This document shows positions 16,725 to 43,399 of a DNA stretch of 64,000 nucleotides, piece after piece. The stretch covers positions 248,001 to 312,000 of the forward strand of contig JAPETS010000033.1 in the NCBI GenBank assembly GCA_026023565.1, read 5' to 3'. The DNA comes from Cirrosporium novae-zelandiae (taxonomy: Eukaryota). Position 1 is the stretch's first letter; each line of letters opens with the position of its first letter. A program made the position numbers and the translations under genes. The notes beneath the pieces are model-generated. The model had not been told where the DNA came from and did not search any database. It saw only the letters and a list, made by a program, of their open reading frames with translations.

Positions 16725-19700
16725 ATGGCTCCAGCAGGAGAGTTGGGATATTTCCCACCATTGGATAAATGTTTTGAAGGAGATGATCGATTAATGTGAA
16801 TCCCCCAAATCTGCTGCGCCATGTTCCCAACGGCACTAACATGTTCACAGATCATGGAAAACTACTTTTGACATCCTATCCACCGCGGATCCTCACGCAC
16901 ACCAAGGAAATCCTGCCATTGACCGCCACCTCTCCGATAAATATACCCAGAGTATACTCGCGAAACCCTTTGACCTATTCAAAAAGCCGAGTGCAGAAAC
17001 AAAGTCAGCTTTTGAGACTAAGACCTCTGCCATAAACATCACCCCCTCCAAAAACGGTGAATATGATATAAAAGAAGTGAAGGAAGACGCTCAGTGGTTA
17101 AGCGGAGAACTGCAGATCGATGAGATATCCGCGCTTCGGATTGTAGTTCTAGAATGGCAAACTCGCGCCGAGTGTCGCCTGGCAAATGGGTTCTCAGAGG
17201 AAGAAACCGCCGCACTTCAAGATGCCCTCGGTAGTAGCAAGTTTGGAGCTTCTGTCCTTCGACCTTTGCGCGATACCAATTCCAAGGCCTCCAGTTCCGA
17301 AATAAGTAGAAGAGCGCGATTACGTACCATCTACCTCTCCGAGCGACTCTATGCGCTGAAAGTCAGCCAATATCTCCTCAATGCAGCGCTTTTTGGGGTG
17401 CCCATACAGGATGCATCAGCACCCCCGGGCGCGAAGGGTAAAGGCAAGACTAAAAAGACTTCATGGGTGGAACGGAATGGACAGCCAATACTTGAAGCAC
17501 AGCAAAACAAGCCGATATTTATAGCGGAATGCGTGGATGCCTGTGTTGCTCGGACCCAGCTTCTAGAGAGAGGCAGCCAGTGGCATGTGGATGATCCCAT
17601 AAGAGGAGAAGCTGAAGAAGTTTGGGGGAGAAATATGCTACTTGAACTAATTCATGTCATGCAAATAATGTTCCTGCATTTCGATGCATCCCCGAGGCTT
17701 CTTTCGACTGATACGGTTTTAAAATGGTTCAATCTCATGAATACCTGTGCATTTTTTGATGGCTTCGAGCCGGTGAGCCAGACCCTCCATAGAAATGCAC
17801 AATTGACTAACATAATAAGCAATTTCCCTCGCACGCAACTTTGTTGTTTCCACTGCAATCGATGATTGCTATTACCTCCCTTACTATTCTCAATCTTCCA
17901 CTTGCTTTGGATACGGTCGTTAATTATTCAACTCACCAAAAGGGGGTAGCAAGCCCTATAGCTCCGAATGGCTCGCGCCCCCTTTATACACCATACTTTC
18001 TTGACCGTGCAAATATTGGCAAGCTAGTTGAAATCTTCTTCGCCGCGGCAGAGCGCTCTTCTACTACAGCCGGTCCCGCTCTATTTGCGTTCAGTATAAT
18101 TCTCCAGAACATGCGAATGGTCGCAGAAGATAATAAACAAGCTCGAGAAGAAGAGGATCTACATATAGGCGATGAGTGGAGCAGTCCTTCTGATCATGAC
18201 TCCCTTGGGTCCTCCCCTGACGCCTCAAGACGGCAAGCACCCCATCGAAATTCTCTATCGTTACAGAGGACTTTGCCAGAGGAGATTCTTGAAATGGTCC
18301 AGAGTCATGACTCGGACATTGACGTTATTGAGGCCTTGGCCAGAGGTGCGGCTGACTTTTGCCGCGTCTTTGACGTTATCGCTGGTCTCGCCACTCGATT
18401 TTGTGATCGTTTCAATTCCGGTAACGGTGATGATACTGGATTGAGGATGCGCAAGAACCTCTTGTTGCTTATACGTGCTGGTCTAGATCTGATGGATTAT
18501 GTACCAGAAGTTCTGGCAGCTGTCCTCTCCATACTCTCAGGCTCCGAACCTTACCAAGATTCATACAACCACCCAACTGAAATCAATGCTTCTGATCCAA
18601 GGTTAATTTTTCTCAGAGACGATGTCCTGCTTGATAAGTTGTTAAAGATCGCCCAAACCCGTTTCCCGTACGAGGCTACTCCCTTTCTCAAGCTGTGTCG
18701 CGCTCTCGCCTCCTGCAGACTTGTCGATGATGAGTGTATGCCTCTTATAGGGTTGTTCCTAGAGCGACTGGAATTCTTTACTCAAGCCATACCGGTTGGA
18801 TATACTGATTATGAACCAGTACGAGAAATAGAAAATGCCAACCTGGTACACCTAACGGCAGATATCGATATGTTCCCCGGTAAGGCTTCTAGGCCCCCAA
18901 TGAGACTTCAGTCCGGCTCTCAGATGGCTTTGGTACCAAGTGCCCCTGAAAATTTCGATGAATTCAAACTAGAGGAGGGCACCCTTGGACAGGTCGTTTC
19001 AGAGTCGAAGCCTCTGGTCATCACATGGAAACATCAATATTCGTGTTTTAGATACCTAGGAAGATTTTTGGAACAGTACCTAGCAAATGGCTTTGTAACG
19101 AATGATAAAATACGTTTTGATGACCCTGAAGACGTTACGATTGAAATTATTGGTCTTCTGAGTACTATGCTCAAAACATCGGTTGATGCATCCACGAAAC
19201 AATCGGGTCCCTTTGGCTCAGTTATGGCTGCCCGGAAAATACTTGAAGATGCCAGCGATGGACTTGACCGAACAAGAGATGTGGTCTCGGTAATATTTGA
19301 TATTTTCGAGGCAACCATGCTTCGACCACAGCTACGTCCGGGAGATTCGCGGACTCTGGATTTGTTGGTCGTCTGCCTGAAATTTGTTCGTGCAGTAGTG
19401 CCAGTCGTTCCAGGAAGGGTCTGGCCATTTCTGTCAAGATGTAGTTTACTCGACATGGATGGTCGAGGTGGCAAGTTCAACACCATTGTTGCCTCTCTTG
19501 AGATTCCAACAGGCCGGTATGCGTTCTTAAGTAACTTTATCGGTCTTTATCAATCTTTGCTTGAAGATGCAATCACGTTTACTGTGTTACGCAACCCAAA
19601 GGTTAATGCTAGAGCCCGAAATGAGAGAATCGAAAGTGCTAGCACGGGAGCTCCTGTACATGTTATGGGTAAGATCCTAACCGCTCTAGAACAGATAAGT

Positions 19701-22511
19701 TTGAATGTTTTTGAAAGCATGCCCAACTGGAAGTTTTCAGATGCTGAGGAAAAATTAAGAATTACTTCCAATATCATCAGCATCTTTAAATCCATCTTAT
19801 ATTATGGATTCGGGGTTGATGATGAATCAGAGCCTGCGTCTAAAGTCAGCAGCGTGATAAATTCTGGTTCAGCACATGCTGTGGAGACTTTTCTTTCTAC
19901 ATCTCGAGTAGGATTACCAATCGATGTCCTTCTCCAGATCGTCCTCGAGAGTATCGACAACCCGAATTCTAGTCTCTTTGTTGAACCAACACGCCTATGG
20001 GTTTCGGAGGTTGCCTCCTCACTCGAATTGATTGAGTCGTTGATTAGAGTGCGGAAGCAATTCGATTTACCCTTCTCTCGGCTTGAATCGCAGCTATTCA
20101 AGGCTACACCTGTGCTGGTCCGCGTGTACGTAACGCATTATTCTTATCGATCTCTGGTGGCTAGCCTTCTTGAAGAGCTTGTAAGGAGTGTCGCAACTGT
20201 GGAAGGCAATCCTCCGTCGTTGCTGGGTCATCTTGGCCCTAAGACTGTCATGGATTTCCTAGAAGTTCTCTCCCATCTCGATAAACCAACAGAAGATGAA
20301 AGTTTACAAATTGGTATCTGGAATCTTCTTGCTGGGATAGTCTCTAGCCGTCAACGGTGGCTCTCTATTTGTTTGTTAACTGGAGTCACTCCTAAGCAAA
20401 GTATTGAGAAGAAGACAAATGATGCGAGTGAGATTGCCAAAAACAAGGCCCTTCTCACCATTGCTCTCGACGCTGTTGTTAGCAGCTCTAGCATGGATAG
20501 CCCCGTTCTCCCGGCTATGCTAGAATTTATATCATTAGCAGAAGAACACTGGCCATGGGCAATGACTGATCTTCACAAGCATCCAAAATTCTTGAATGCT
20601 ATATTGAATGACCTCGGTACAATGAAATCAATCAAACCTGGGAAAGACTTTGGAGCAGATGTTAAAAATGGTTATTCAACCAGAATCGCAGCCTTCTTTG
20701 CAGACATCCTAGCAACCTACATCCACCACTCAAGGTCACTTGGTGATACTTCCTTCGTTAAAAAGCTTTCCCCTCATCTCCAGCTCTTCGTGAATAATGG
20801 AGTAGCTGTCTCGGCATATAACACGTCGCTACATGCTAATCTTGCAAAGAATTTTGAGGCGAGGTTTCCAAACTACAAATTACATCAGTTCAAGCGTACT
20901 ATCAGTCAAAAAAAACCTCTCGGGAGGGACTTTTACTATGATATTCCCCTCATGAGCAAGGTGTTGAGTTTCGACCCCGCTTGGGAGGGTGCAAAAGGTC
21001 AAGGTTTTATGGAGGAGTTTGTCCGGGCCAATATCAATTTATCCGTGGTTGAAGCTCAAGTTGTAAGTATTCTTCCCGATCCGTCTATCGTTCTCGTTCT
21101 AACACTTTTGAAGAACCTTTTGCAAAGCTGGAAGTTCCTAGCAATAGAGCTTAGCTTCACGGTCCAGGAAAAAGAACTCCGAACGGGACTGTTTAAAGTG
21201 GCAAACGACTGTTTGGTATCCAATACGGAAAACAATCTCCCCGAAAAGTTCTTCCAGTCACTCCTCCTGACTAGAGCTGATCTTGCTTTGGCTCTCCTGC
21301 AGAGACTTGTCAAAATCAACGGAGATGAACCTGATGCTGCATCGCTTCTCTTTAATGCCTGGGATGCGGTCAGAGCATGCGGACCAAATTTCGAGCTCTC
21401 GTTTGACAACACTAACATGGACTATTACCGCTGCCTCCTTAAAATTCTCTTCCTAACTCTCCAATTTCAACTTGTGGACCAGACCAAAAAACTAGCACAG
21501 CTACAAAAGTCAACATCTACTTCCCGTGCCATTGTTCCCTCTACAGACTCCAACATCTCCAAAGTAATGCAAACAGTATTGGAAATTTTGACAATAGTCG
21601 TTGGGCAAGGTTTCCGCTCCTTGACAAGTATCCTACACGAAAGCCCACAAAAAGTCCTTCCTGCCGACTTCGCTCTCTTAACAGCAATCCTCCAAGTCTG
21701 TCTCCAGATGCCGAGAATCGAACTCATCTACTCGCCAGTTGTCATGCAACTCGTTGATAGTCGCATAGCGCGGTATGCCATTACATTGTTTTCATGGTCT
21801 GACCAGCTCGCTATTGATGGAGATCCCGTGTATGGTGAGCTTAGTATCTTGCTGTTATTGGCACTATCAACCGTGCCTATGATGGCGGAGCATCTCGCAG
21901 TAAGCGGTATCATCAGCCAAATTTCCGCCGCGAAGCTCATAACTATATACCGTCGAAATCCGGGACCAAAACCGTTCGACCAACAACCCCGTCTCTACGC
22001 CATTTGGGCCACTGGTGTGGTACCTTTATGTCTTAACCTCCTTCATGCTATTGGTGCGGGTTTGGCTGGTGAAATCGCAACATTCTTAAACGGTTTTCCG
22101 TCACAACTATCCCGTGCGGCCGAATCTTTCAATCCAGATGTCTCGCCCTCGGCTGATGCTCCGACTATGGGATGTGTCTCTCTAACAATGGTTTCAGAAG
22201 CACAAACTCTTGCACTAATATCTTTCATTCTCGATACCGTTAGGGCAGCGGGCCCAAGTGCAGGCATTGAACCCACACAAGTACCCGAATTAGCATGGGA
22301 CAAGGGAAGACTGAAGGAAGATATCGAAAACTTTCAGAGGGCAGGAAAGAGTATCAAGAGTAGGATATTACCTACCACTTCAAGGGAGGAAGCTTTATCG
22401 AGACAAAAAGCAAGGCATTTTGATACGGGGATGGAGAATCAATTGCAAGAAAAGGTCATGGAAGATTTAAAAGGCACGCTAGCCATTTTGGAGGGGGTGT
22501 CGGATGTGTGA
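16725..22511 (+). CDS. NUP188: Nucleoporin Nup188 (Nup184-like); introns 16796-16850, 17773-17819 and a probable in-frame intron 21063-21113
   Basis: About 1,880-aa helical protein starting MAPAGELGYFPPLDKCF...SWK...FETKTSAINITP...IKEVKEDAQWLS...IDEISALRIVVLEWQ; also RFPYE and SLHANLAKNFE...LGRDFYYD blocks typical of fungal Nup188. Confidence 0.85.
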
Positions 22512-23072: not shown

Positions 23073-25031
23073 TTATAATCTAGAAGAAGAAGAAGAAGCT
23101 CTAGCAATCATAATCCGTGACTCACCACCACCACCACCACCACCACTACTATCTACTTCCCGTTTAGCCCTTTCCCTAATAACCTTTCTTAAAATCTTGC
23201 CCGAAGGGGTTTTGGGGATATTATCCACAAATACGATACCACCTGTGATTTGTTTCGTTTTTGAGACTTTTTCGGACATGAATTTTATGATGGATTGTGC
23301 TGCTGCTGCTGTTGTTTCTGTTTTTGTTTTTGCCTTGTTGTGTTCTTCTTCTCCTTTTAGAACTATATAGGCTCGGGGATATTCTTCTCCGTTTCTGTTT
23401 GAAACTTGTTAGTACTACTGCTGTACTGTACTGTACACCACTCCAGCTCCCCCTCCCTTAGTAGAGTAGCTTGCAGACTTGCTTACATTGTTACACCAAC
23501 TACAGCAGCATCCGCCACGGCATGGTTTTCCAGTAAAACTGCCTCCAATTCTGCCGGGGCCACTTGGTTCCCTTTCACCTTTATTAATTCCTACTTTCAT
23601 GGTTAGCTCTCTCGATCCGATCCCCCCAAAAAAATATTTCAAAGGTAACAACTCTCTCTCTCTCCATACCTTTTTTCTATCCACAATATGGAACTTTCCA
23701 TCCTCATCTACCACCGCAATGTCGCCGCTCTTCAACCACCCATCCTTTGTAAGTGTTTCCCTTGTCGCTTCGGGGTTTCTCCAGTAGCCTTTCATCACAT
23801 TGGGGCCTCGCATCCACAGCTCCCCCCTCTGCCCCCTCCCTAACTCTGTCTTTCCGTCATCGTCCATAATCTTGGCCTCGCAATTCGGGTTCAACTCCCC
23901 CACCGCACTCCCCTTTGCAATTTCATCGGGATGCCACCCCATCAGTGAACACGTGCATTCCGTCATGCCGTATCCCTGCCTCACGTTGATTTTCCCTTTC
24001 TCCCACAGGCTTTCAAACTCCTCGCATACCTCCCCGCTCAGGGGTGCGGCTCCACTTCCAACCTTCTCCACGCTGGACAGATCGAACTTTCTCACGATTG
24101 GGTGTTTTGCCAGGGCCACCGCGATCGGCGGGACCAGAGTCAGCTCTGTGATCCGATACTTCTGTATGTATTCCAACATCTTCAGGAAATCAAATTTCGG
24201 CATGATATATACGGGGATCTGCCTCATTGTGGCATTGGCAATGAATATCGTCTGCGCCATCGCGTGATACATGGGCAGGAAACATATCCACCGTAAATGC
24301 TTGTTTCGTGCTTCGCAGTTGGGATCCCCCGTGCTGTGATAGACCATCTGGCAGGTATTCGCAATGTAATTCCGATGAGTGATTTCCACGCCTTTGGGCT
24401 TGCCCGTGGTGCCACTGGAATAATTCAACGCCAGAGTCCTATTGGCATCTCCTCTCGTCTTGAATTCCTCCCATCGGAACCTCTCCCCATCTTCCACACT
24501 TGCGATTAATTCACCCCAATACCGACACCCTCTCCACTCTTCCCTTTCGCTCCCACCATCATTTGTTGGCCCATCAAACACCCCATCATCAAAAACAAAC
24601 ACATTCCCCTTCCCCAATCCCACCATCTCCGCAGCCTGAATCCCCGTTTCCAAACTCCCCTTGGAACAAATCAACCATCTAGCCCCACTATCCCCCAACT
24701 GCGACGCCAGTTCCCTGCTCGTATACCCAGGATTTGCACCCGTGAACACGCCCCCCGCCATCACGATCCCCATAAATGCTACGGGGAAGAACAAATTGTT
24801 GCCCGAGAATAACAGAACGCGGTCACCGGGCTCGAGGCCAGACATCTGCATCCCGGCTGCGAAGCGCTTGCTCCATAATCTGAAGTCTGCGGTGGAGAGC
24901 ACGTGGGTGTGAGGGCGGTTGGCGTCGATGAATTTGGGGGTTGTGGGGAGAGGGTGAGTTGGAGATGTGAAGAGGTAGGAGGGAAGGGAGGTATCGGGGA
25001 TCGAAATCGTCCAACGGGATTTGAGGGGCAT
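23073..25031 (-). CDS. 4-coumarate/phenylacetyl-CoA ligase-like AMP-binding enzyme with PTS1; introns 23669-23591 and 23486-23395
   Basis: YSSGTTGKPKG, QGYGMTE, GELWMRGPNVMKGY, GWLKSGD, spliced DRKK|ELIKVKGNQVAPAELE, IPKTPSGKILR; ends -SRL*. Confidence 0.92.
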
Positions 25032-25386
25032 AGTTGGTGGGTTAGGCTGGGTAATAGTAAAGGGTGAGTGAGTGAGTGAGTGAGCGGAGCGAGCCAGCCA
25101 GCATAAAATAAAGTAGAATGTCCCCTCTTGTTATCTCAATATTTTCCCTCTCTCTCACTCTGTAGGGTATCTATTCTCCTCAATTTAACCCCGCAGATTT
25201 TCACCCTGCCCCCACCTCCAATCCAAGTTTCTTCCCCCCTCCCAAAAAAAAAAGACGGCTATCTGATTCAGCAACGAAAACAATAAAACGGAAGCAACGG
25301 CAACGAACAAACAAATTTTCTTCCACTCACTCACTCAATTGCTCTGATTAATTACCTAGCTATCCGTCCAGGACCTCGGAAGTTCC

Positions 25387-25423: not shown

Positions 25424-27831
25424 AACCTCGGGGGTTCAAATACAACGTCAGTTCACGTCAAACAAGTCAAAGAGACCTTTCTCGCACACAAACACACACA
25501 CACACATATGTACTATACGTCAATTAATACTTTGAACCAACAACCCCATGTACGTGCGCTGCGTGCGTGCGGGTACGGGGTGCCGAAGGCGGGTGGAGTT
25601 CGGTAAACAATAAATTAAAATTAATTAAATGATGTTTGTTTCGTTTGTTGGTTCGTTTATCGTATGCAGATCCGGGGTATTGGGGTCAGCGAATGTTTTG
25701 ATTAAACTTAATTTATATTCATTACTTTCACGAACAAAAAAATGTCAACGCATGGGTGGGTAATTAGGTGATTGTATTCTTGAAAAAAAATGGAATTTTG
25801 ATTGTTTTGTTTCGTTTTTCTTGGTTATATATTTAGGTATGGACTATGTACGTGTATATTTATGCGTAATTTTGTGTATTGTGCGTTTAGGATTCGGTAA
25901 TTTATTAATTCTAATTAATAGATACCTAGGCAGATAGATAGATGTACTGTACTGTATTATATAATTACCTAGGGCCTAGTCAAAGGATACAGTGATCCAA
26001 AAAGGTAGGTTCGGGTTTAGGTTCAAATGCCGAAACGGCAGTTCTTTTAGATACGTACCTAGGTAGGTAGCTTGATTGTTCCTGTACGTATCGTATCGTA
26101 TCTGTTCTCCGCGTTCCTTATCAACAATAACCGATGCGTAGTAGTGCCTTTTACTTGTAGATCCCAAGTCAAACGCCACTCTCTCCTCTGCCCCTCCCCG
26201 CCTCAGCCCTTAAAAAAAAGTGGGGTCGATCGAACCGAGGATTGTTATTGTTGTTACCGTCTGTTTCCTGTAATTTACTAATTACAGAAGTACCCCGGTA
26301 GTTCTACTTGGAGATATGTAATTGCCGAGGCTCCTCGGTATAAATATGGGTGGGTAATGAGCCGAGAAAAGTATGGTAGGGTACTTGCCTAGGTGGGTAG
26401 GGTACTTGCCTAGATGGGTAGGTACCTAGGTAGGTAAACAGTTGCTGTACCTAACTGAAGCGGGTTAGGTTATATGTTTGCGTAGTTTGCGTAGTTTGCT
26501 TAAGGATTTATATAGCCCCTCAGCGGGTTGCAAACTTAGAAACTACAACATACGCCCTTTACTGAAATTGCACATTGCACCTAGTTGTATACCATGGACC
26601 TAGTTAGAAATTCAAGGAATAACCCTCCTTTGCACTACACATAGTGGCTTTTCTCTTGAGGCTCAACATTTGTTCATCCAAAAAATCGACGCCCGATTTT
26701 GCCTGATTCTGCCCGAAAATATTTATCTAGCCTATCATAACTTTTACATGACACCTGCGAGCGGCACCATTTGTGAACAATCTAGAGGATACACAAGAAT
26801 CAATCCTGGCTAAGATACCAGATATCCTCTTAACCCACAACATTCAAGACTTTGCTTATCCGCATTTTCATATCAATCCCACTTAACTCCATCAAAACCT
26901 ATACCACTCGATACCTACCGATCTATCTACTTCTAATACCTCACTCTAAGCCCCTCTCTCCAACAATCCCTGTTAGGAATTCTGACTTGGTCAGCTACCA
27001 GCTCTACCATGATGAAAGAAAGCCTTTGTATTTTATCTATGACCCAACAACTTACGGGCAATCATATCGTGATTTATGAAAAGGCAGAAAGTCCCTATGC
27101 ATTCCACCACCACGCAATCTAGATCCATGACGGATGTTAATGAAATTCTCATTCCCTCTGGGCATTGAGTAGCTTAATTTGCGAGGTAGAATTGGCCCGC
27201 GTTTGATGGGAGCCACGATTATTTTCAAGGCTTTGAGGTTTATTTTTCTCAGAAGCCAAGGTGGTGGTCTCATAGCTGACCACTAGCACCTTGAGGTTAA
27301 ACCATTGTTATCGTGCCCCAGTTTGGGGTGTCTCGATGAGGCTGAGGAATATGTCAAGCATGATGGTGGGGTTGCATGTGGCAGCAGTGCGCAGGAATTG
27401 CTCCGCCTTGGTGACGATGAAGGATTTCTGCTGCCCTCTAGCATGAGCTACAGCAAGTTCAGCCTCTCTGTTAGCATATGCGAACATTTCACACTCACAG
27501 CAGCGACTTTATCTGGGTTCATAGGCATAATGGTAGGGTTCATTTGCAGTGCTTGACGGACGACATAACGGAGAAGATCTTCGAGCCCTTGTATTGGTTT
27601 TGTGAGTTCTGTTGGTCCAAGGGTCCATGTTTAAAAGCATGCGATCCCTCCGTTGGACTAACCAGACTGTCTACCTGCAATACTTGAACTCCTATCACCT
27701 GCTCATCATCAATTCCCCCATTCGACCTTCAAAATCTTTTGCCCCAAACAGCTTTCTCGATAATCTTACCTCGTCTAAATGTCATCAAAGGGTAGATATT
27801 TCACTTTATCGAATCCAAAGAACTTACGCTC

Positions 27832-28350
27832 ATGAAGGCCTTATTATTAGAGCCTACAGAAATTAAGACCGCCCCTCCAACTTGTCAAAGCGAGGATCCT
27901 CTTCCAAAGAGCTCCTGTACCATGGTAGCTATTATCTCGGCCGTCGCTCCTCGTACGTAACGTCAATACAGTGTTAAATTAAATTATTACTGACACGATC
28001 ATCTATCTAATCTAGCCAGCAATGATGAACACCTCGCCCTTCCTTTGAGCACAAATAGCAGCGATAAACACCTTACCCCTTCCTTGAGCGCAAGTGGCAC
28101 TGTTTCGGTTCAAAGCAATCTCAATCAAGCTTCTGAGAATGCTTCCCAGTTCAATGCACCGGTCTCGAAAGACTCTGTCTGCTATTCAGCTTTTCGTGAG
28201 ATCAAAGCTACAGAAAACAGCGCTAAGGGAAGCTCCCTTCAGCTCAATAGCTTTTGTTCAGACGCAAATGGGGTTGCCACCATCATGAACGCCAAGGTCG
28301 CCAACGCCACCAGCCATGTCATACGGCATCCTCCTAGCCAAGGACCTTAG
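27832..28350 (+). CDS. Small protein (about 151 aa), or the surviving 3' end of a decayed gene, with a paired amyloid-like motif; intron 27953-28015
   Basis: GTACGT...CTGAC...TAG intron joins MKALLLEP...AVAP to SNDEHL...; carries NQASENASQFNAPV and NSAKGSSLQLNSFC. Upstream sequence (about 27420-27830) looks coding but is interrupted by stops. Confidence 0.55.
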
Positions 28351-29296
28351 GCCCTTCTTTAGTGCTAGTTATTTTGCTTGTGGGAAACCCTTTGCACTGG
28401 ACACCAACGTTTGATTGAGATGGTGAAGGAGTTACATAACAGGAGGGGAAGGTGTTGCAGGGAGTTGGTCACTCCCAGTCACGTCTTAGCAAGAAATAAT
28501 CAACTGATTGTCACCTTTATCAAAAGGGTGGTCTACTTACTGTCACTACTATCTTGAAATCCCATCTACCAAATGAAAGCCTTTCTTAGTATTTTCGTGT
28601 GTTTTATTAATAGCTACTCAGATACTCGAGTAGTTATGATGATATCTGGTTTGACGTTAGTAGGCCCAACATGCGGGAAGTAAAGTTCTTATTAGACAGT
28701 TTTTCCGTGGGTTTGTCACAACACTTAGCATACGGTCATTGAACGTAACAATCCACGTGGAGTAAATATTCACCTTGTTTATCTTATAGCATTGGGGGAA
28801 CTCTTATTCTCAGAGGATTATGGCTTTAGAAAGACAGCCACTTTTAGTAAAATTATAGGTAGGCGTGGTAATTCAACGCGTTTATAACTGTTTCAAAAAC
28901 TTTTATTTCAAGTTCTTCCAGACCTTGATTGCCCAAGGTTGATTTTGGTCTATCACATGTGTGTATATATATATATAGTATATATACTTAGGATGTTGCT
29001 GCAGTAGATACCTGCTTAGTATATTTTTGATTTCTTTTGGATTAGATAAAGGATTAATAGATAAAATCACGCGGAGATAAAATAAAGTGTTGTGAATCGG
29101 GTGTAAAAATCTTTCCGCACTCCGCACGGCCTAGGATAAGGGCTTTATCTAGGTGTAACTTGATGTGGGTTGTATTTAGTTAATGATCTAAAGTCTAAGG
29201 TAGAGAGCTCACTTTATAAGGTGAGCCTTAGGGCATATGCCCTCGCAGCCTAGCCTAATAGGGAACCGTAATACTCTAATTAATAATTAAAATTTG

Positions 29297-29389
29297 GGTC
29301 GGTCTATCAAAAAATTTGGTCTGGTTGGTTAAGGTCTATAGACTGTCTATGGTAGACCGTTTATTTGGTCCGGTCTATTGCCAACACTA
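29297..29389. mobile_element. Terminal fragment of a TAGACC/GGTCTA-repeat DNA transposon family
   Basis: Ends ...GGTCCGGTCTATTGCCAACACTA, nearly the same as the end at 36237; subterminal GGTCT repeats. Confidence 0.6.
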
Positions 29390-30296
29390 TAATAACAATG
29401 GCACTGGGGCCCTCCTAAGCAGCTAGGAGGAGGAGCGTAATTTATGTATCGTTTGTCTGCAAGCATCAGGATGGCCGTAGTGTCTGGTAATGGTGACTTT
29501 TTTCAACACTGAACACTAGTGAATACCCGACACTTGCGGCTACCCTAGCAAGCACAGACCCCTCGCGGGGTATATATACATACTCGAGTAGCCTTGGGCT
29601 AGAAATCTTCATGCTTTTACAACTCATAAATCCTGCCCCAATAGCACTATTTCCCTAATAGGATAATATACTACACTTTTAGAAGTTAAGTCTTATCGAA
29701 CATAACAGAGCTGATATATATATGCACTGTAACATGAGCTGATTAGTCTTTTTTCTAATAAAGGCAAGTGATCTGTAATGCGTTGGCTTTGCATGAAGCT
29801 TGTATAGAAACGAGGCGTAAAATTCACGCCATAAATTAAGACAGAAACGATGAGTAATGCCCTATACTGCCCATCAATGCCGCTCGTTGGTAGAGGTGTC
29901 ATGTAAAGATTATAATACCACAGTCAGGGAAGGGAATAGACCACACCAGACCGGTCTGAAGGTGATTATTGTTGCGGGAACTTTATTATTGCAGCAACCG
30001 TCGTGAACATCCTTACTGCCGATTTGTGCCGTCCCAACATGAGGTTATTATGTTAAAGCGGAATCAGGCATAAAGCTTTTAATACATAATATTGAACCTT
30101 ATCATTAGATCAATAAACCTGTCAGCCTTACTCACCTGGTTATACGTTGTCAGAACAGTTATAACCAAAAAGTATTATATCCGAAAGCCTCATTTCTATC
30201 TTAGTAAATTGCTTTCGTCTTTGGCACATATTCATTATCAATTTGCCCTTTTATTATCCTTCCTCTTCTCGTGCAACTTAAAATATACTAAGATTT

Positions 30297-31268
30297 ATGG
30301 TGAATTCATTGGAATCTAATATAAATAAAAATCTCACTAACAATATATTCTAGTCCGGTCTCGAAGTTCTTGGGGCTGCTTCTGCTGCGTTAGCCTTATT
30401 AGAATCAGCGTTGCGCATTATCGGGCACGTTCGCAAGGCTTATCGACGCCAAAAAAACTTTACAACAGTCCTTGATCGCCACAATCATGAACTTAAGGAC
30501 ATAAAGACCATTATCGCAGTAACTGAACATGAAAAGGCGCTAAGAACAGAAGCTGTTACTTCTGAATTGATTAAAATCAAAGCTATTGGACAGAGGCTGG
30601 TAGATCATCTAAATACTTTGGCACCACAGGATAAAAGAATTATGCGTCAATTTACCGATCAGTTAATAAATGGGTCAAAAAATGAAACCATACTAGCCAA
30701 TGTTATGGATGAACTCTCTCGCGCAAAGTCCAACCTTAGTCTGTATATTCAAGTTGCCAATGTTGGGTTGACATGCACTGTTGAGGGTATCTTCATCGTG
30801 AACGCCATAGCTGTTAGCCGAATCGACAGTCTCGTTCAGCAAATACTTGGTCAAGGACAAGGACTTGAAATTGCTGAATTTCTTAGAGACCGATCTTTTC
30901 AAAGTATGTTTCACAATCTAATATCTTTAAAAAAAAACTGACAATGAATAGATGATAATATAGTGACCCTGACCGACGCCGATATGAAATCTTTCTGTGA
31001 TAGAGTGGCAGCTATTACTAGCGATCTAAACGCTTCTGCAAGCTCTTCAACCGACGCAAACCTCGATACCTCGCGGACCGTTCTGAATAATTCGACGGAA
31101 GGCCAAGCTTTACAGATCAATGGTGCAGTTGGGGAGAAAGGTTGGTGGGAGGTTAAGCACCTCACGATCAAGGACAATAAAGCTATTGAGGAGAGTATAC
31201 AGATTAATCATGGAATCTCTATGGATGTATTCAATCGTTTATTGGGCTCTAGAGCTGTGTCGATCTAG
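30297..31268 (+). CDS. HeLo/SesA-like N-terminal domain plus C-terminal two-repeat amyloid-like motif (about 289 aa); ATG-only first exon, introns 30300-30353 and 30904-30951
   Basis: Spliced start MSGLEVLGAASAALALLESALRIIGHV (hydrophobic first helix), helical domain, S/T linker, then NNSTEGQALQINGAV and DNKAIEESIQINHGI. Both introns are canonical and keep the frame. Confidence 0.8.
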
Positions 31269-31488
31269 AGATGGTTCTTTGGAATGATTGTCTTGGCATC
31301 AGGGTTGGGAATGGACCAGACCGTCGGTCCCATAGGCCGCGCGAAACATGGAAAAGGTTGTACATCTTGATTCACAATATATTATTTAATCTTCACGTGA
31401 TTTTATTTAATCAATTATCTAATCTATAATCTAATCTAAATAAAATGAAAAATATAATTCCATTAGTAGTATCCTAAGTACTTAGGTA

Positions 31489-31692
31489 TCTCCTAAACTG
31501 GCTTCCCATGTCACACGCTTGCAGGGGGGGTAATGCTGAAAGGTTTATTGGTTCAATGATAAGATCTTAAGGCTCAATGGTATTCATCAAAGAACTTGAT
31601 GCCTGACCCAGCCTGGAAATGGTTATCTGACTTATTATAATCCTTACATAACACCCCTACAAGCGTGCGACATTGGAAGCCAGTTTAAGAGA
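31489..31692 (+). mobile_element. MITE of about 204 bp, copy 1 (Tc1/mariner-like, TA target)
   Basis: Terminal inverted repeats of about 35 bp: TCTCCTAAACTGGCTTCCCATGTCACACGCTTGCAG / CTACAAGCGTGCGACATTGGAAGCCAGTTTAAGAGA; preceded by TA. Confidence 0.8.
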
Positions 31693-31894
31693 TGATAGCC
31701 TTTCTGACTTATTAACGCAGGTGGCGTAAGGCTAACAGTTTGATTGTCAAAGAGATTTACGAAGACTTCAAGGATGCGCGTTCGTGTCTCGCTTGCTGCT
31801 TTAAAGGCTCTTGGATAAAAGCCTCACCCAAGTTTTATATATTTGCCCTTGAAATTTTTAGCATTGGCCCCGAAGTTTTTAATATTTTCTATTA

Positions 31895-32090
31895 TCTCCT
31901 AAACTGGTTTTCCATATCATACGCTTGTAGGTGTATCATATAAGAATTATAATAGTTCGGATAATTATTTCCAGGCAGAATCAGCTATCAAGTTTTTTGA
32001 TAAATAAAATTGAGCCTCAAAAATTTATTATTGGACCAATAAACCTTTCAGTATAGACTACAAGCGTGTGACATAAACCAGTTTAGGAGA
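31895..32090 (-). mobile_element. MITE of about 196 bp, copy 2, inverted relative to copy 1
   Basis: TA|TCTCCTAAACTGG...CCAGTTTAGGAGA|TA; its reverse complement aligns with copy 1 over the whole length. Confidence 0.82.
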
Positions 32091-32107
32091 TAGTTTAGCA
32101 ACGATAT

Positions 32108-32260
32108 TGTTACGGTCCCCTATTATATTCCCGATCGAGTTAGACTGCTAGGGCATATACCTGAGCACCATTTCGATAACTTGAGCTCCCCACCCTAGGT
32201 TCCTAGACCTCAGTCATCAATATCCACACCAGCTATACCCCTATCTTAGGCGTTGTAACA
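32108..32260. mobile_element. Probable short or internally deleted solo LTR
   Basis: Bounded by TGTTAC...GTAACA; flanks GATAT and AACAT differ only by transitions, so a decayed 5-bp target-site duplication is possible. Confidence 0.45.
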
Positions 32261-32281
32261 AACATATAGACAATAAAATAA

Positions 32282-32343
32282 ATCATTATCATCATTATCA
32301 TTATTATTATTATTATCATTATTATCATTATTATCATTATCAT
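32282..32343. repeat. (ATC/ATT)n microsatellite
   Basis: Directly visible. Confidence 0.9.
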
Positions 32344-32441
32344 AAATCTATAACCTCTCCTTCACTGCCCTAATCAAACATAGGAACGGAATCTAAAACT
32401 TACCACAAGCACGACACACCTGGTACCATGTAAAGGTGGGC

Positions 32442-33274
32442 TTAGTCGCGTCCTAGGGGGAAGGAATAACTGTGTCCTGGGCGGAAAGGATACCCATATC
32501 TTGGAGAAAAAGGACAACCATATCCTGGTGGATATGGATAGTTATATCCTGGGGGATAGGGATAGTTATATCCTGGGGGATAGGGATATCCTGGGGGATA
32601 GTTATATCCTGGGGGATAGGGATATCCTGGGGGATAGTTATATCCTGGGGGATAGGGATAGTTATGTCCTGGAGGATAGGCATAGCCGGGTCCTGGAGGG
32701 TATGTAGACATGCTCATGTTCTGGGGGATAAGTGTCGGAGGCCTTTCTACCGAGAGGCCGTTCACCTGGGAGCTTTGCCCCCCCGCCACGTTGTTTCGAC
32801 TCTCGATGCTAATAGAAGGTAGAACGGACGTTTGGTCATTGTAAATTATTCCATTGATCTGGGTAGCCGTTCCATAAGCGTGATTACGAGTAGATACAAT
32901 GCTGCCAGCAAAACTTATATTCGGTTGAGGGGTGGTAAATTGCTCATCGTTCACTAGATTGGATATTAGTATTAGTAACGGTTTAGTTTCATAAGATGTA
33001 CTGAAAGTGGTTACATACCAGGCATCTGGCTCGTGGTAGTATCCGGACTCGCAACATCAGGATCTTCGGTAAGGGTCGCTGGAGATTGGAGCTCGGATCG
33101 AGGACTGGAAGTGGCCGTCTCGATTTTCGCGATAGTTTGACCATCGGTATAGGGTACCAGATATTGGGATTTGCTTGAAGAGTCGAGAATAGGTATCTCG
33201 GTTGTCACGGTACTATCATCCTCGGTACGGGGTACTGAAATTTGGAGTTTGTTTGGAGGATCAGGGCTTGGCAT
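32442..33274 (-). CDS. About 255-aa low-complexity protein: S/T/P-rich N-terminus, paired amyloid-like motif, C-terminal YPPG repeats; intron 33018-32954
   Basis: GTATGT...CTAAT...TAG intron joins ...TTTSQMP to VNDEQF... in frame; contains RNHAYGTATQINGII and RNNVAGGQSSQVNGLS, then seven PPGY repeats. Confidence 0.75.
32520..32702 (-). repeat. Coding minisatellite encoding (YPPGY[N/P]) repeats
   Basis: Recurring TATCCTGGGGGATAG units on the plus strand. Confidence 0.9.
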
Positions 33275-33823
33275 CTCGATTGTCGTGACGAGGATTTGTA
33301 ATTCAAAACTTTGAACGGTTTAGACTATATTCAAGAATATAAAATACTAGTTGATGACACCTTAGTGAGGCAAGACCATTAAGAGGAGAGATTTTTGATA
33401 GTAGAATATTTAAGATGCGGACTAGCTAGGGGTATATATTGGAGGGTCGGCTCATAAAGTATCACTACAAAGTACTGTACTGTGCAAAATCCTTCTAATC
33501 CTAGGTAAGGCTGGTGGGAAGTGTTAGCCCTAGGCAGCCGAATAACACTCGAGTATGTTCTTATGATCATACTTTCATTAGCTTGTGCGACATAATAATG
33601 ATATATTAACGATATACCAACCTATAGAATTTCAATATCAACAAGTCCTACAAGTACTTTAACGGGAAAGCTTAATTTATGAAAACAGCGCCCAGTACTA
33701 AGGCAGGATATTAAGCCTAACGCCCTATTCTAACAACGTAAATCGGGCTCTTTCAAGTCATGAGTTCAAATTCTTCAAGGGATATTCCGGCTCACGTAGT
33801 GACGCCCTATAGGGACTTGGCAT

Positions 33824-36237
33824 CAGGGAAGAGAATGAACCAGACCAAATAGACGGTCTAACCACGATCGACTAGACCGACCAGACCTTCATTTCCCAAG
33901 GTCTATTTAGTCTATGTCTATCATGTAGATATATAATATTAGAATGTTTAGGATACTAATAGAATTATACATAGTCAATCCTAGAATAATTGTTAGCTTG
34001 CCCTATTTTGACAGAGGTCTTAGCTGTCTGCATTTTAACTGCTCCCCCTACAATTTTCTATATAACTACCCTGGAATTTTGTATGTGAACCTCCTGTATC
34101 TATAACAGCCTGATATCTCTTTCCTATATAAGTAGTTGTGAAATAGGGGTAAACCATTTTTCCGCGTTCCGCACCAACTAGACTAAACCTCTCCGTCTAT
34201 AGACTAACTGAACATGCTTGCCCAGCATCATCCTCAAAAAATCTTTTCTCATTGACATCGACGGTTCGTTTATCAAGCCATATAGAAACGAATATTTTCT
34301 AAATACTATCACTTCAATTCTTGATAAACTTGTAAAAACTACACGCATTCAAAAATTCTCTGACGAATTTTACATGATGAAAAAGCAGGGATGGCTAGAA
34401 CTGAAGAGGATTTTTCTACAATTATCAGGGCACAATAAGAAGCACTGACAAGCATCTAATCATTAGGGCGTTCTCAATCACGCAGAATTCGTATACCAGT
34501 TCTTCAAAGCCTTGCTAGGAGTTGGGGCACACTCCATGAAGCAAAGTTCTTGAACTATACCGAACCCGCCAAATGGTAGAAGCTGTCTCTACTCTATACG
34601 CCTATATAATCAAGCCTCTTCATCAGTCTTTCAAATGGTACAATAGAAGTCCAGCGGTGAGATTGTTCGCTGCTGTCTACAGCCCTTCGAACTCAATTAC
34701 AAGGATACAGTCGAAAAAATAAGGAAGCGCATCGATGATATGGTCAACCTCACTAGTATAGCAGCGAAAGCAGAAAAGAGAGATATTCATAGGGAAGTAT
34801 GTATGGAACGGACTGAGAATGCTCCTGCGACTACCGATATTATGAATGTATTTCTGAGCGAAATCTCAAAGCAACACAACGACCATCAGAGGCAAAATAT
34901 AATCTTAGAACGATTGATCCACCAATTTGACGAACTTGTGAAAGATGCAATGAGTTGATTATTTTTATTTATTGGCTTTCTTCTCCCGACCTTGCCACAA
35001 GAATAGAACCCTAACAGCTGAATAGTCACCAATTCTATCAATAATAAGGTCGACAATAAGAGATCAGCAGACTAAATTCTAGATCCACAGGTGCAGGATA
35101 GCCCCATAATGTGACAAAGAGGACGAGAGCTTCTCGATCGATTTCTGTTCTTTCTTCGTGGATGGACAGGAGACGCAGTATCTGTCCTAAGCACCTATTA
35201 CTTCCTGCTTGACCTGGGCCATGCCATTGCGATACTCAATCCATGAGCGGGTGAAGCAACTGGAACAATACCTATGGGCTTCATTAGAACTAGCCGACGC
35301 TCAAGTGAATCTGTGGTTAGTCGAGGCACAATTCAATAGGTTGAAAGCCTTAAAGGAAGACAGCGAAAGAGAGGGACCAGACAGACCAGATGGGTCCCCC
35401 TCGGTCTGATCCGTCTATGAAAATTGAAAGCTCGGTCTAGTCGGTTAGACTGACTACACCCTCAAGGAAATAATATTTTTGGAACGAGAGCCTAGTTTTC
35501 TGCAGTCTAAAGGTTCACCGAAATTGCAGCACAGACCCCTTCTTTTCTTTTTTTCAAGTATGTATCAGCTTTCAGAGACAAGATAAGAATTTACCCCAAG
35601 ATTTGAGACCAAAGAAATCTGGCAGCTATCCGTATTGAGGAGCGTTTAATCATTCTTCATCCGGACTATCGCGTTGGTCTGCAAGCTAGGACTGACAATA
35701 TTCGACCGTCGTTGCAAGAGTTAAGAATGGGATTCTTATATATCTAAGCTTTATGTAGTTGCAAAGAATTGGGGCACGTCAATCAGATTCAATTTTTGCA
35801 GTGGAATAAATATTTTATTCATAGATATATGTCGTAACCTGCAGGACCATGGAAGAGGCATGAATCAGACTATTTATTACCTTTAAAGGCCTTCAAATCT
35901 AAAGCCTAGGTACTATAGACATGCGGTAGACACACACCGTCACAAGGGCTTTAAATCTCAACACTAGACTGTCTCAAAAGCAAGATTTCTTTCAGTGAAT
36001 ATCCTCTAAATGTACAGTACTCGGCCATCATCAAATTCCCTACGACTCTACGGGAGAGATTAGAATAATGATTTAGCCAAGCTAAAGAATGGTTGATAAT
36101 ACTGAAGTACTTGATTACTTAACTGGTTATCTGGAATAATTCGTATTTATATAGACCAAATAGACCTTGGACAATCAAGGTCTGGTCGGTCTAAGGTCTA
36201 TAGACCGTCTATTTGGCCCAGTCTATTGCCAACACTG
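33824..36237. mobile_element. Possible non-autonomous TIR element (hAT-like ends) about 2.4 kb long
   Basis: 33824-33920 and 36151-36237 are inverted repeats (AGACCAAATAGACGGTCTA...AGACCGACCAGACCTT...CCAAGGTCTATTT); ends CAGGG.../...CACTG. No target-site duplication found. Confidence 0.5.
34467..34958 (+). pseudogene. Frameshifted fragment resembling the N-terminal helical domain found upstream of NACHT in fungal NLR/STAND proteins
   Basis: Across three frameshifts it reads GVLNHAEFVYQFFKALLGVG / LHEAKF / ELYRTRQMVEAVSTLYAYIIKPLHQSFKWYNRSPAVRLFAAV / LQPFELNYKDTVEKIRKRIDDMVNLTSIAAKAEKRDIH. No P-loop seen downstream. Confidence 0.6.
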
Positions 36238-38194
36238 AGATCTATGGATGGATGGAGAAGATGTATGGAATATCTTTGATCAGGTGGGTGCCCCTTCCTG
36301 ATCTATATATATAGCACCGGGAGCTAGATCGTGTTGGAGATTGACATGTTGAACCGTCGCCGGGTGAAGCTGATGATACATGTCGTAGTCTACCATATAA
36401 TTGGAATTGAGCTAGACACAGCAGTTCTTATAGTTAAACCTTGTTTTTCTAACATCTCCTTCTTCAAATTAAAGGTAGCAAAATCTTAAGAGATAATAAG
36501 GGCAGGGGGTGTTATTGGTACAAGTACCTCCGAAGAGTTATGAGGCTAGGTAACACGGAATGTGTGATTTTTGCGGTAGAAAACACCCGTTAAAGGCCCA
36601 GGAGTAGTATTTTAGATCTTGAATGGGGTTGCCGCAGACTGTAAATGGCCATTCAGAGCACTTGTACGCACGGGTGTGTTAGATGTGGTTCCTCTCGAGA
36701 ATATATGCTCAGCCTCTCCGAATTCTGAACCGTATATGTCGTCTGGACATACTCAAGCATTGTCGTGATAAAGTCCTGAAAACCCTGGCTCTTTACTCTC
36801 TGAGACTTGGTGAAGAACTATTCGATAAGTGATACAGTTGTTTGTATGGTGAATGGAATATCTGAGATATCTTCTACCTAGAAAATGGGGCAGGAGCAGA
36901 GGCTACAAGATCTTTGAGGTCTTTGCGGAAATTTCTAGGCAAGATCTTCAACTTTTCGGACATAGGGCGAGCCTGTTCGGCGTCCTGAACTAGGCCCTAG
37001 GAGTAGACGCGGGGGGGGGGGCTTCTCAAGCTGAAACTTCATCATCTGGCAGTACCTTCTGCGACTGTAGTTCTTGTAACCCACAAAGGCTGCAGTTTCC
37101 TGACACTGACGGTATTATTTCAAGCAAGAAGTTGGAAATTTGCCTCTGAGAGTGGTGCGGCTTGTGTCGCCTGCAAAATAGCTGTGGTATATCGACGTGA
37201 CAACTCAACATGGCATGATCTTGACAATGTTCTTTAGTCCACGGATATGATGTATCTCCAATTCTATGAATCTCACTGCCACCCATATCATCATCAAAAC
37301 TATCCTTTAAACTCAGACCCAGAATCGGACTCGTTCTGTACACCATCCTGTTGATGGAGAGATTCGCAGCAAATTACCTGATCAATCGTCAACCACTTTT
37401 ACTAAAGATTCTAATTATTTCTTCCATCTTTCACCTCATCGTTATAGTTCTTACGCACCGCAATACCTCTCAAATCCTATAGCCCGTTAAGTAGGATTTC
37501 GTTTTCCTTCTTCAAGTTGACTGGTTTTTTGGGATAGTAGTGAGGAATCAAGTTGATTGCCCGTAGTAGATGGTGGATATGATGTCAATCCTGTTACTGT
37601 GAGAGGACACTCCGAGAGGACACTGGGGTTATGTTCATGTCCCATGTATATGATGAGGCAGCAAAATAAAATCTGTCACGACTGCACATGAGATAAACTA
37701 GCAAGTCTGTATCACACGAATCTGAGAACCATCAAGACTGGTTAATCCTTAATAGGTATCTCAAATGAAAGCTGAAATTGTGAAGCCAACTCCCATTCCC
37801 GTTCAAAGCAACCAACAAAAGCTGCATATTGTCGAGGTACTTAGTACCTCCCAGAATTATTCGGGCATATCAACGTAAATAGGGGTGTCAGTTGTAGGTA
37901 TTACTCGAGTATAACCGGTATTTTTAGTTTCGTTACTCTTGCCCTTTTTTATAAAAGCTTCATCTCTGCAAATCAGCGAAATATAGCTCTAGCTAGATTT
38001 AGGGATCCACAGCCCCTTGTTTCTCTGATTAATTCAGGGATCGACCCTAGTTCCTGAAACCCCCAGTGTGCTCGGCCCACACCAAAGTCTTGCCCCACAA
38101 TAATCAACGTCATCATTTCTAACGTGACAATTCGCGACACCAAAACGCGAGGTTCGGATGTCCTGGATACTCGGCGCAGACAAAACTGCTCGTT

Positions 38195-42264: not shown

Positions 42265-43399
42265 ATGGTGAGTTACCTCGCATTGCTATTGTCTTGATGA
42301 ATTGTTTGAGTCGCCATAAAACATGTACACCCAGTTCCAGGGTTGAGAGTCCTTGCAAGATGCTTCGGTGGAAATCTGAAGCGCAGAATTGCTGACTCGG
42401 GGATTTTCGTAGCCTTTCACCAAATCTGTCAAGAGCAGCGCTTACTACAGCCGCTATCAAACCAAATACAAGGTGAGTTATCCATCCAAGTGTGGAATTT
42501 GAATCTTAAAGCTAACTTCTCTTCAGCGCCGTAGGCAAGGAAAGGTATGAAGATATCGAATCTCGTTGACAGTGATACTAATCGAATAAAAGACCGACTA
42601 CTACGCTCGAAAGAAGCTTATTACTCAAGCTAAGAACAAGTACAACTCTCCCAAGTACCGCCTCGTTGTTCGCTTCACCAACCGTGATATCATCTGCCAA
42701 ATCGTCACCTCCGAGCTCACCGGTGACAAGATCTTTTGTTCTGCCTACTCTCATGAACTTAAGCGATATGGCATCACCCATGGGCTTACCAACTGGGCTG
42801 CTGCCTATGCCACCGGCCTCTTGATTGCACGTCGTGCTTTGAAGAAACTTGGTTTGGATGAGGATTTCGAGGGTGTTCCGGAACCGGATGGCGAATTCAC
42901 TGTTACCGAAGAGTCGGAAGACCGTCGCCCATTCAAGTGCTTCCTCGACGTTGGTCTTGCTCGTACCTCCACGGGTGCCCGTGTTTTCGGTGCCATGAAG
43001 GGTGCTTCTGACGGTGGCATCTATATCCCTCACTCCGAGAACCGATTCCCCGGCTTCGATATGGAAACCGAGGAACTCGACGCTGAGACTCTTCGCAAGT
43101 ACATCTTCGGCGGACACGTCGCTGAGTATATGGAAACTTTGGCCGATGATGATGAGGAACGATACAAGTCCCAATTCCAGGGCTACATTGATGATGATAT
43201 TGAGGCAGATGGTTTGGAGGATCTCTACACCGAGGCTCACAAGGCCATTCGGGAAGATCCTGTGAAGAAGGATGATGAAGCCAGTACCAAGAGTAAGGAA
43301 GAGTGGAAGGCAGAGACCAAGAAGCACATGCAAGTCAAGCTCACCAAGGAGGAGAAACAGAAGCGTGTGCAATCCAAGATTGCAGAACTCAAGGCTTGA
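42265..43399 (+). CDS. RPL5: 60S ribosomal protein L5 (uL18); introns 42268-42412, 42473-42526, 42545-42592
   Basis: Spliced [57 protein letters not shown]; also [25 protein letters not shown]. Confidence 0.98.

Follow-up and report, generated by a model that had tools for sequence, protein, structure and literature searches.

Within the window, a 64,000-nucleotide (nt) stretch of the genome of Cirrosporium novae-zelandiae, lies a three-exon gene for a 289-amino-acid (aa) protein with an N-terminal helical bundle and two C-terminal repeats, which we refer to as the effector gene. Two smaller genes on either side carry the same repeats, and the remnant of an NLR-type gene lies nearby. The features are as follows.

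30297..30299, plus strand: exon 1 of the effector gene, the ATG only (splice model of the window; the junction is spliced in the homologue copy L007)
30300..30353, plus strand: intron 1, 54 nt, phase 0, GTGAAT..CTAAC..TAG, branch site CTAAC at 30337
30354..30903, plus strand: exon 2, residues 2–184
30904..30951, plus strand: intron 2, 48 nt, phase 1, GTATGT..CTGAC..TAG, branch site CTGAC at 30938
30952..31268, plus strand: exon 3, residues 185–289 and stop
30357..30440, plus strand: helix 1, residues 3–30 (6–24 hydrophobic), presumed to insert into membranes (AlphaFold2 (AF2) and family hydropathy; role by analogy with HET-S, PMC4518210, PMC12881547)
30357..30755, plus strand: predicted four-helix bundle, residues 3–135, of remote HeLo-like/SesA/MLKL type (several lines, each weak alone)
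30756..30998, plus strand: conserved alpha/beta extension, residues 136–200, with QVANVGLT and GLxIA blocks, spanning intron 2 (family alignment, AF2)
31011..31067, plus strand: variable Ser/Thr-rich linker, about residues 205–223 (alignment gaps, AF2)
31068..31130, plus strand: repeat r1, residues 224–244, with N231, T233, A237, Q239, N241 and G242
31155..31217, plus strand: repeat r2, residues 253–273, with N260, A262, S266, Q268, N270 and H271
31221..31262, plus strand: C-terminal amphipathic helix, residues 275–288 (AF2, family alignment, C-terminal model)
27832..28350, plus strand: flanking gene A, 121 or 151 aa, predicted intron 27953–28015, repeats at 28102–28164 and 28195–28257 (HMM E = 2.3e-6; predicted open spliced model)
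32442..33274, minus strand: flanking gene C, a 255-aa low-complexity protein with a PPGYNYP-type tail, predicted intron 33018–32954, repeats at 32906–32844 and 32813–32751 (HMM E = 3.2e-6; predicted open spliced model)
34540..34958, plus strand: broken NLR-type remnant, DUF7708 over two frames with stops around, no NACHT and no repeat

Both introns of the effector gene have CTRAC branch sites and TAG acceptors, and their excision leaves an 870-nt frame whose 289-aa product is residue for residue the public gene call P0001 (hypothetical protein, Cirrosporium novae-zelandiae). The splice model and this identical gene call bear out the preliminary description, which had removed two canonical introns to reach a 289-aa protein; the protein starts with MSGLEVLGAASAALALLESAL, as had been claimed. 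The gene had further been called hidden, which is right for an intron-blind open reading frame (ORF) track. The ATG at 30297 directly abuts the GT donor, and exon 2 offers TTG at Leu21 as its first common start codon and Met98 as its first ATG, so such a track splits the gene and drops the first helix, as described. Public annotation did not miss the gene, because the public gene call is identical. We checked 11 related loci, comprising L004, L007 and a single representative of each near-identical group. The ATG|GT arrangement recurs in eight of them, 54–85 nt ahead of where the match begins; in the other three, L007 is a spliced copy, the first exon of L017 has two codons and L005 has no clear start. 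L007 equals L008 minus three GT..AG introns, plus one base change, and two of these introns sit at the intron positions of the effector gene. The gene is real, three-exon and intact, and the splice reading is confirmed.

A profile built from five relatives matched 679 clusters (50% identity) at E ≤ 0.001 and 119 at 1e-30, with many end-to-end matches among the best 150 of the 679. After most short fragments and three long fusions were left out, 109 of 152 proteins were aligned, 70 of which cover the C terminus, 63 of them gap-free; many of the remaining relatives end near intron 2 and are probably unspliced gene calls. The family is nearly invisible to Pfam. One relative, P0082 (651 aa), possibly a fusion or the product of wrongly joined gene calls, has the bundle and a shortened repeat region followed by TPR-like repeats. 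A weak, word-limited search for long proteins sharing residues 220–289 found none at E ≤ 10 among 48 candidates.

AF2 modelled the full protein at pLDDT 89 and pTM 0.67, with helices at 3–30, 35–60, 67–90 and 97–135, followed by a mixed extension as far as 216, a pair of beta rungs and a terminal helix. The helical domain of about 190 aa that had been proposed thus stands as a helical bundle at 3–135, but its remainder is predicted instead as a mixed alpha/beta extension to about 216. Hydropathy and AF2 agree on the hydrophobic N-terminal helix: residues 6–24 are the joint most hydrophobic 19-mer of the protein (Kyte–Doolittle 1.74), and the first helix falls within the top 5% of its own protein's windows in 74 of 80 relatives. 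Its hydropathy compares with a family mean of 1.44 and reaches at least 1.6 in only 30 of the 80. The Ser-rich linker is present but short and variable, with gaps in 30–64% of 70 rows at 205–215 and pLDDT below 50 at 217–221.

Compared by VIA-align with 48,161 chains, the bundle matched Rx-CC (Z 11.6, rmsd 2.5, 106 aligned), along with MLKL (Z 11.1, rmsd 2.7, 124 aligned; and Z 10.9, rmsd 2.3, 99 aligned) and the other plant chains Sw-5b (Z 11.1), NRG1.1 (10.2) and MLA13 (9.8), all below 13, the value that VIA-align calls common for helical bundles. The suggested comparison with MLKL-type four-helix bundles found the predicted topology, at a level that unrelated bundles also reach, IncA, dynactin and HIP1R scoring level with MLKL. 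The MLKL four-helix bundle and the plant CC and CC-R domains share this topology with the effector (Z 9.8–11.6), whereas identity is 8–14% and the effector has no attached kinase or NB-ARC. The HET-S HeLo domain was not among the listed VIA-align matches of the bundle, an absence that does not exclude likeness. Foldseek returned no match at E ≤ 0.001 for either the bundle model or the C-terminal model, and a PDB sequence search with the family profile returned designed or coiled-coil helices only.

By profile, the proposed HeLo, HeLo-like or SesA assignment held only at the level of remote HeLo-like/SesA similarity. P0001 alone had no HeLo, PigL_N or SesA Pfam match at E ≤ 1, and HeLo (PF14479) matched none of the 109 family members at E ≤ 0.01 and none of P0001–P0005 at E ≤ 1. 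HeLo-like PF17111 matched 9 of the 109 at E ≤ 0.01 (best 2.9e-4) and SesA (PF17107) matched 6 (best 4.8e-5); the nearest neighbours in Atlas were PF17111 clusters (0.95–0.96), and hhalign to two PF17111 members gave E 0.006 and 0.017 (probability only 6% and 3%) versus 0.45 for an unrelated control. Both the four-helix bundle and the hydrophobic extreme N-terminal helix are present, as in the HeLo/HELL/MLKL superfamily. In combination, these lines support a remote HeLo-like/SesA domain at the N terminus; none of them would do so alone.

The C-terminal two-repeat motif of the preliminary description is borne out, and r1 and r2 co-vary in register. They have in common the consensus hydrophobic-x-x-N-x-[TA]-x-[DG]-x-[AS]-x-[QM]-x-N, and its asparagines are conserved in the 70 rows (N231 90%, N260 91%, N241 80%, N270 79%), as are Trp249 in the r1–r2 loop (84%) and the C-terminal helix. 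The loop has 8 aa, and the repeats are spaced by 29 in 40 of 63 ungapped rows and by 26–32 in all 63. Charge correlation at offset 29 averages −0.33, versus −0.11 to +0.05 at ten other offsets, and repeat positions 6, 7, 9, 11 and 12 are charge-anticorrelated (permutation p 0.0005–0.02), statistics that ignore phylogeny. Among the 25 highest-ranking MI-APC pairs, eight fall in register, against a background of 18 in 1,711 pairs, in an alignment that is shared with AF2 and again with phylogeny ignored. The published charge positions of the HRAM motif, 6, 7, 11 and 12 (PMC4518210), are among those that co-vary in register.

The layout is that of HRAMs, with two C-terminal pseudo-repeats of about 21 aa and a loop within the HRAM range of 6–18 aa (PMC4518210). 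Numbered as an HRAM, the repeat conforms at positions 5, 10 and 14 and in its charge pattern, but carries Asn8, Gln/Met16 and Asn18. Hydrophobic residues are retained at position 5 (59 of 63 in r1, 60 in r2) and, with Thr allowed, at position 10 (57 and 58), but fail at positions 8 (3 and 2), 16 (23 and 22) and 18 (8 and 9). Gly19, described as perfectly conserved in HRAMs (PMC4518210), occurs in 31 of 63 r1 and 3 of 63 r2 sequences, the effector itself having G242 in r1 and H271 in r2, and the basic residue of HRAM position 15 is absent, residues 238 and 267 being mostly L, V, I or T. A string search of the 155-row HRAM table of PMC4518210 found no QIN, QVN, QLN, QFN or MIN, and MVN only in another register, while the control QLGN occurred 13 times; N8, Q16 and N18 each occur singly among the published HRAM rows examined. 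Judged by its sequence, the repeat would work like an HRAM, to which it is probably related, yet it fails the stated criteria of HRAM1–5. PP, RHIM and BASS3 were rejected, as these are single-copy G-hydrophobic-Q-hydrophobic-G motifs whereas here an [AS]-x-Q-hydrophobic-N core is doubled, and PUASM (NLR32; FxGxGxQxxGxGxF, with a PNP_UDP effector) was rejected by pattern.

The AF2 monomer forms a two-rung beta-solenoid with pLDDT 80–97 over 221–289, and the C-terminal region modelled alone from nine sequences, one of them from the neighbouring gene at L006, also forms two rungs (pLDDT 78). Searched against the 48,161 chains, this C-terminal model had the HELLF fibril 6EKA as its sole match at Z ≥ 2, a weak one (Z 2.2, rmsd 5.9, 49 aligned); HET-s fibrils were not among its listed matches, which does not exclude likeness. 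In an ESMFold2 trimer of residues 222–289, run with no alignment, r2 stacks on r1 in register and head-to-tail, with contacts 260–231, 268–239, 270–241 and 257–228 (score 0.59 versus 0.00 for the best control, run agreement at least 86%, pLDDT at least 64). In calibration, 21 of 30 true microbial pairs passed this mark and none of 23 microbial monomers did; for eukaryotes the figures were 17 of 29 pairs and 0 of 30 monomers. Of the eukaryotic pairs that lack a solved relative, only 1 of 7 passed, so the pass may stem from the model's memory of HET-s-type fibrils.

We searched the 31.4-Mb genome assembly for further carriers of the repeat. A C-terminal family HMM matched the frames 27994–28350 (plus strand) and 32442–33056 (minus strand), which belong to genes A and C; the next match had E 0.3, and ten shuffles gave nothing below 0.026. 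Each of the two genes has two repeats, 31 residues apart, and all six repeats of the effector, gene A and gene C keep N8/Q16/N18. A strict DNA pattern gave five genome matches, four of them within the 4.8-kb cluster, against four genome-wide for its reversed control; the fifth (L020; an 88-aa frame with one copy) was treated as chance, and a looser pattern was at chance level (90 matches versus 71 for the control). Own-genome searches with P0001 and its C terminus found the effector gene only, and a search for homologues of gene C found only Pro/Tyr-rich look-alikes. An inverted duplication of genes A and C was rejected at the DNA level, as blastn of the region shows no mutual match. The target genome has 74 NACHT-type matches, none of them in the window and none with a loose-pattern match up to 3 kb upstream; the C-terminal HMM found no repeat in the 30 of these 74 loci that were scanned with 1.5-kb flanks, and the N terminus of the NLR at L004 (see below) had no match in the genome in a search without positive control.

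The repeat also recurs beside the effector in relatives, for which 17 metagenome loci fall into 10 groups. A motif-bearing neighbour lies upstream of the effector in 7 of the 10; of the others, L005 has 4.4 kb of upstream sequence and no copy, and L009 and L017 are too short (less than 0.5 kb upstream). Single neighbour copies had E values of 0.0003–0.008, with none below 0.1 in ten shuffles. At L004 the neighbour is an adjacent, divergent NACHT-WD40 NLR whose N terminus is one repeat copy; L003, 90% identical to L004, has an NLR that carries stops, so the NLR link comes from this one lineage. At L006 another frame (224–511, plus strand), which encodes two repeats plus a helix, lies 0.7 kb upstream of the effector, in position and direction like gene A. 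In five groups (L008, L010–12, L013–16, L018 and L019) a single copy stands just before a retropepsin-like frame without the D-T/S-G catalytic motif, a likeness suggested by Atlas (0.93 for L013, a tentative match close to the tool's threshold). An open frame joins the repeat exon to the retropepsin-like exon at three of five loci (L008, L010 and L018, not L013 or L019), and a stricter one-intron joining test was passed by one of four. Next to the cluster, three of these groups share a conserved divergent gene (L013:7231–8277, L010:2602–3333 and L018:5387–6214, all minus strand) that encodes another retropepsin-like region, similar when aligned by eye. The region ends in F-Y-x-V...D-V-x-L-G, a low-complexity tail follows it, and the gene has no Pfam match. 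The five retropepsin-linked groups are related (63–71% DNA identity where aligned), so they may represent one inherited arrangement. The spliced contig L007 (1–1862, corresponding to L008:704–2738) runs from the last part of the retropepsin-like frame through the complete effector frame, an intron between the two having been removed, and is possibly a two-gene transcript or overlapping transcripts assembled together.

Among known systems, HELLF of Podospora anserina (HeLo-like domain plus two HRAM5 repeats, 6EKA, with the NLR FNT1) is closest in layout together with HET-S. It shares with the effector a HeLo-like bundle, two C-terminal pseudo-repeats, Gln16 and a similar size, whereas the effector lacks the HRAM5 sub-motifs QxFG (positions 1–4) and QG(QI) (16–18) (bioRxiv 2020.07.06.188508) and has N8, N18, Tyr/His in place of Gly19 in r2 across the family, and the conserved loop Trp. 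HET-S/NWD2 (HeLo PF14479 plus HRAM1 PF11558) resembles the family in its r1-plus-r2 effector with in-register charge complementarity, and its arrangement with an adjacent NACHT-WD40 NLR bearing one N-terminal copy is the one seen at L004; such an NLR adjoins 98 of 155 HRAM effectors (PMC4518210). By contrast, PF14479 and PF11558 match 0 of 109 members, the core of the target is polar and that of HET-S hydrophobic, the spacing is 29 rather than 36, and HET-S has its NLR partner whereas none with the repeat was found in the target genome. The NLR copy at L004 has His3 and Asn8, as HRAM3-like repeats have His3 and in some rows Asn8, and one published HRAM r0 matches it over the eight residues GNRADGKS (PMC4518210). 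The family departs from HRAM3-like repeats in Q-hydrophobic-N at positions 16–18, which is not in the 155-row table of that source, and in Arg at r1 position 3 (86%). Three-gene sigma/PP clusters likewise have several clustered genes with one motif and a HeLo-like or SesA effector, but in those clusters the motif is single-copy and a lipase serves as third partner, whereas the partners here are double-repeat low-complexity or retropepsin-like frames. The sigma cluster comprises sesA, sesB and an NLR, and the PP cluster comprises HELLP, which carries the PP motif, SBP and PNT1. The preliminary description had compared the layout to HET-S and HELLP; the likeness holds for HET-S, as for HELLF, both with two repeats, and does not hold for HELLP, as PP motifs are single-copy (PMC4518210).

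We consider it probable, from predicted structure, covariation and genomic context, that the protein is an amyloid-gated cell-death effector, a pore former of the HET-S/HELLF kind with a divergent HET-s-related repeat. By analogy with HET-S and HELLF (PMC4518210, PMC12881547, bioRxiv 2020.07.06.188508), its C terminus would be unfolded at rest. Seeded by the repeat of a partner, the C terminus would then fold into a two-rung beta-solenoid whose Asn/Gln core is polar, and monomers would stack r2 on r1; as in HET-S and HELLF, the bundle would refold and release helix 1, permeabilising the membrane and causing death. In the family the seed would be the single copy on the adjacent NACHT-WD40 NLR or, apparently, on the retropepsin-like protein. 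In the target genome, the double-repeat products of genes A and C are the only seed candidates found; they may serve as seeds, relays or decoys. We infer, as did the preliminary description, that the protein could be the executor of the cluster; no motif-bearing NLR was found in the target genome, and the NLR-type gene close by survives only as a broken remnant.

That remnant, 3.3 kb away, split over two frames and without NACHT, bears on a reading that concerns the trigger and is compatible, indeed overlapping, with an amyloid-gated effector: the design would be intact but orphaned, its receptor lost in the target genome and the cluster decaying, so that the gene is rarely or never triggered. 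The failure to find an NLR with the repeat in the target genome, the dispersed inverted repeats around the effector gene and the stops in the L003 NLR all fit. We nonetheless regard orphaning as somewhat doubtful, because the effector and genes A and C have open spliced frames, all six repeats keep N8/Q16/N18, the HMM covered 30 of the 74 NACHT loci plus 1.5 kb on either side, and parts of the genome may be missing from the assembly. It is very improbable that the spliced protein is an artefact of chance splice signals. Although no transcript of the effector gene itself was seen, the public gene call is identical, the profile reaches 679 clusters at E ≤ 0.001 with many end-to-end matches among the best 150, and both introns are removed in L007.

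Two further alternatives keep the gene and change what its product does. The C terminus could be a soluble two-rung beta-solenoid capped by a helix, which binds its partner one to one by beta-augmentation and forms no propagating amyloid; the confident monomer fold over 221–289 (pLDDT 80–97), the conservation of Trp249 (84% of 70) and of the C-terminal helix, the poor geometric fit to HELLF (rmsd 5.9) and the loss of the HRAM hydrophobic core and Gly19 would all suit such a protein. We judge it unlikely: in the trimer model the monomers stack head-to-tail despite the helix, published HRAM rows also show what looks like a short helical tail behind r2 (PMC4518210), and the single rung of the partners is unlikely to fold alone. 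The other alternative is a protein that forms amyloid but is non-lytic: a prion or scaffold like HET-s, in which the bundle either signals or has been disarmed and makes no pores. HET-s itself is a natural variant without toxicity (PMC12881547), the hydrophobicity of helix 1 is moderate (at least 1.6 in only 30 of 80 relatives), and the conserved 136–200 extension, which is not part of the MLKL match, suggests some other function. However, helix 1 of the target is above the family mean (1.74 versus 1.44), with no Pro or extra charge in 6–17, and a non-lytic effector is unlikely.

The overall layout of an amyloid-gated effector, a HeLo-like bundle plus two repeats, is already known; the switch sequence and the partner genes differ. 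In the literature searched, which covered few subscription papers and included bioRxiv 2020.01.06.895854, PMC12261475 and PMC13506858, we found no paper on this repeat motif or on retropepsin partners. PMC9815663 gives no effector for NLR34 and NLR40 and a single-copy motif on PNP_UDP for NLR12. Within that literature, and judged against the HRAM, PP and PUASM motifs, the repeat class and its non-NLR carriers may be new. The repeat breaks stated HRAM rules yet keeps register and covariation, and so could show directly how much polarity the HET-s fold accepts in its core; it also lets cross-seeding with HET-s or HELLF be asked. Fungal amyloid signalling has four described motif families and is nearly always started by an NLR. 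We tentatively raise the possibility that the family is a further HET-s-related signalling amyloid class, distinguished by its Asn/Gln core and the lack of a terminal Gly, much of which would be triggered without an NLR, through seeds on catalytically dead retropepsin-like proteins with one copy or, in the target genome, on small prion-only proteins with two. On this NLR-free account, the seed-bearing protease-like protein would probably make up a decoy sensor together with the other pseudo-protease, the one encoded by the divergent gene. If true, NLR-free seed carriers would be a type of fungal amyloid-signalling receptor not found in the literature searched, and non-NLR carriers would suggest that amyloid-gated death has further inputs.

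Around the cluster, at 26697–36238, lie scattered short repeats, both direct and inverted, that resemble small transposon remnants, for example 31487–31698 with 31889–32092 (78%) and 33845–33915 with 36151–36216 (81%). Dinucleotide indices do not suggest RIP in the effector gene (gene B) or the NLR remnant. The Pro-Gly-Tyr tail of gene C is coded by 18/24-nt tandem repeats (32440–32730), and an ATT/ATC microsatellite lies at 32282–32344. Elsewhere in the window, a 406-aa frame at 4025–5245 (minus strand) resembles a HeLo-like bundle in its C-terminal third, the family N-domain HMM giving only E 0.37. It is adjoined by a frame at 6831–7655 (minus strand) for an apparently helical protein and by a frame at 8590–10113 (minus strand) that we take to be like a DUF2235-type alpha/beta hydrolase; the three are perhaps a second defence-type cluster. 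The other genes presumably include a large nucleoporin-like gene (16840–22511), an AMP-dependent ligase (23073–25130), ribosomal protein L5 (38123–38887) and an asparagine synthetase-like gene (42590–43399), and a flavin reductase-like gene (PF01613) lies at 60827–63013. Two contigs of the genome assembly (G000), C35 and C47, gave matches at identical coordinates, which suggests a duplicated contig in the assembly.
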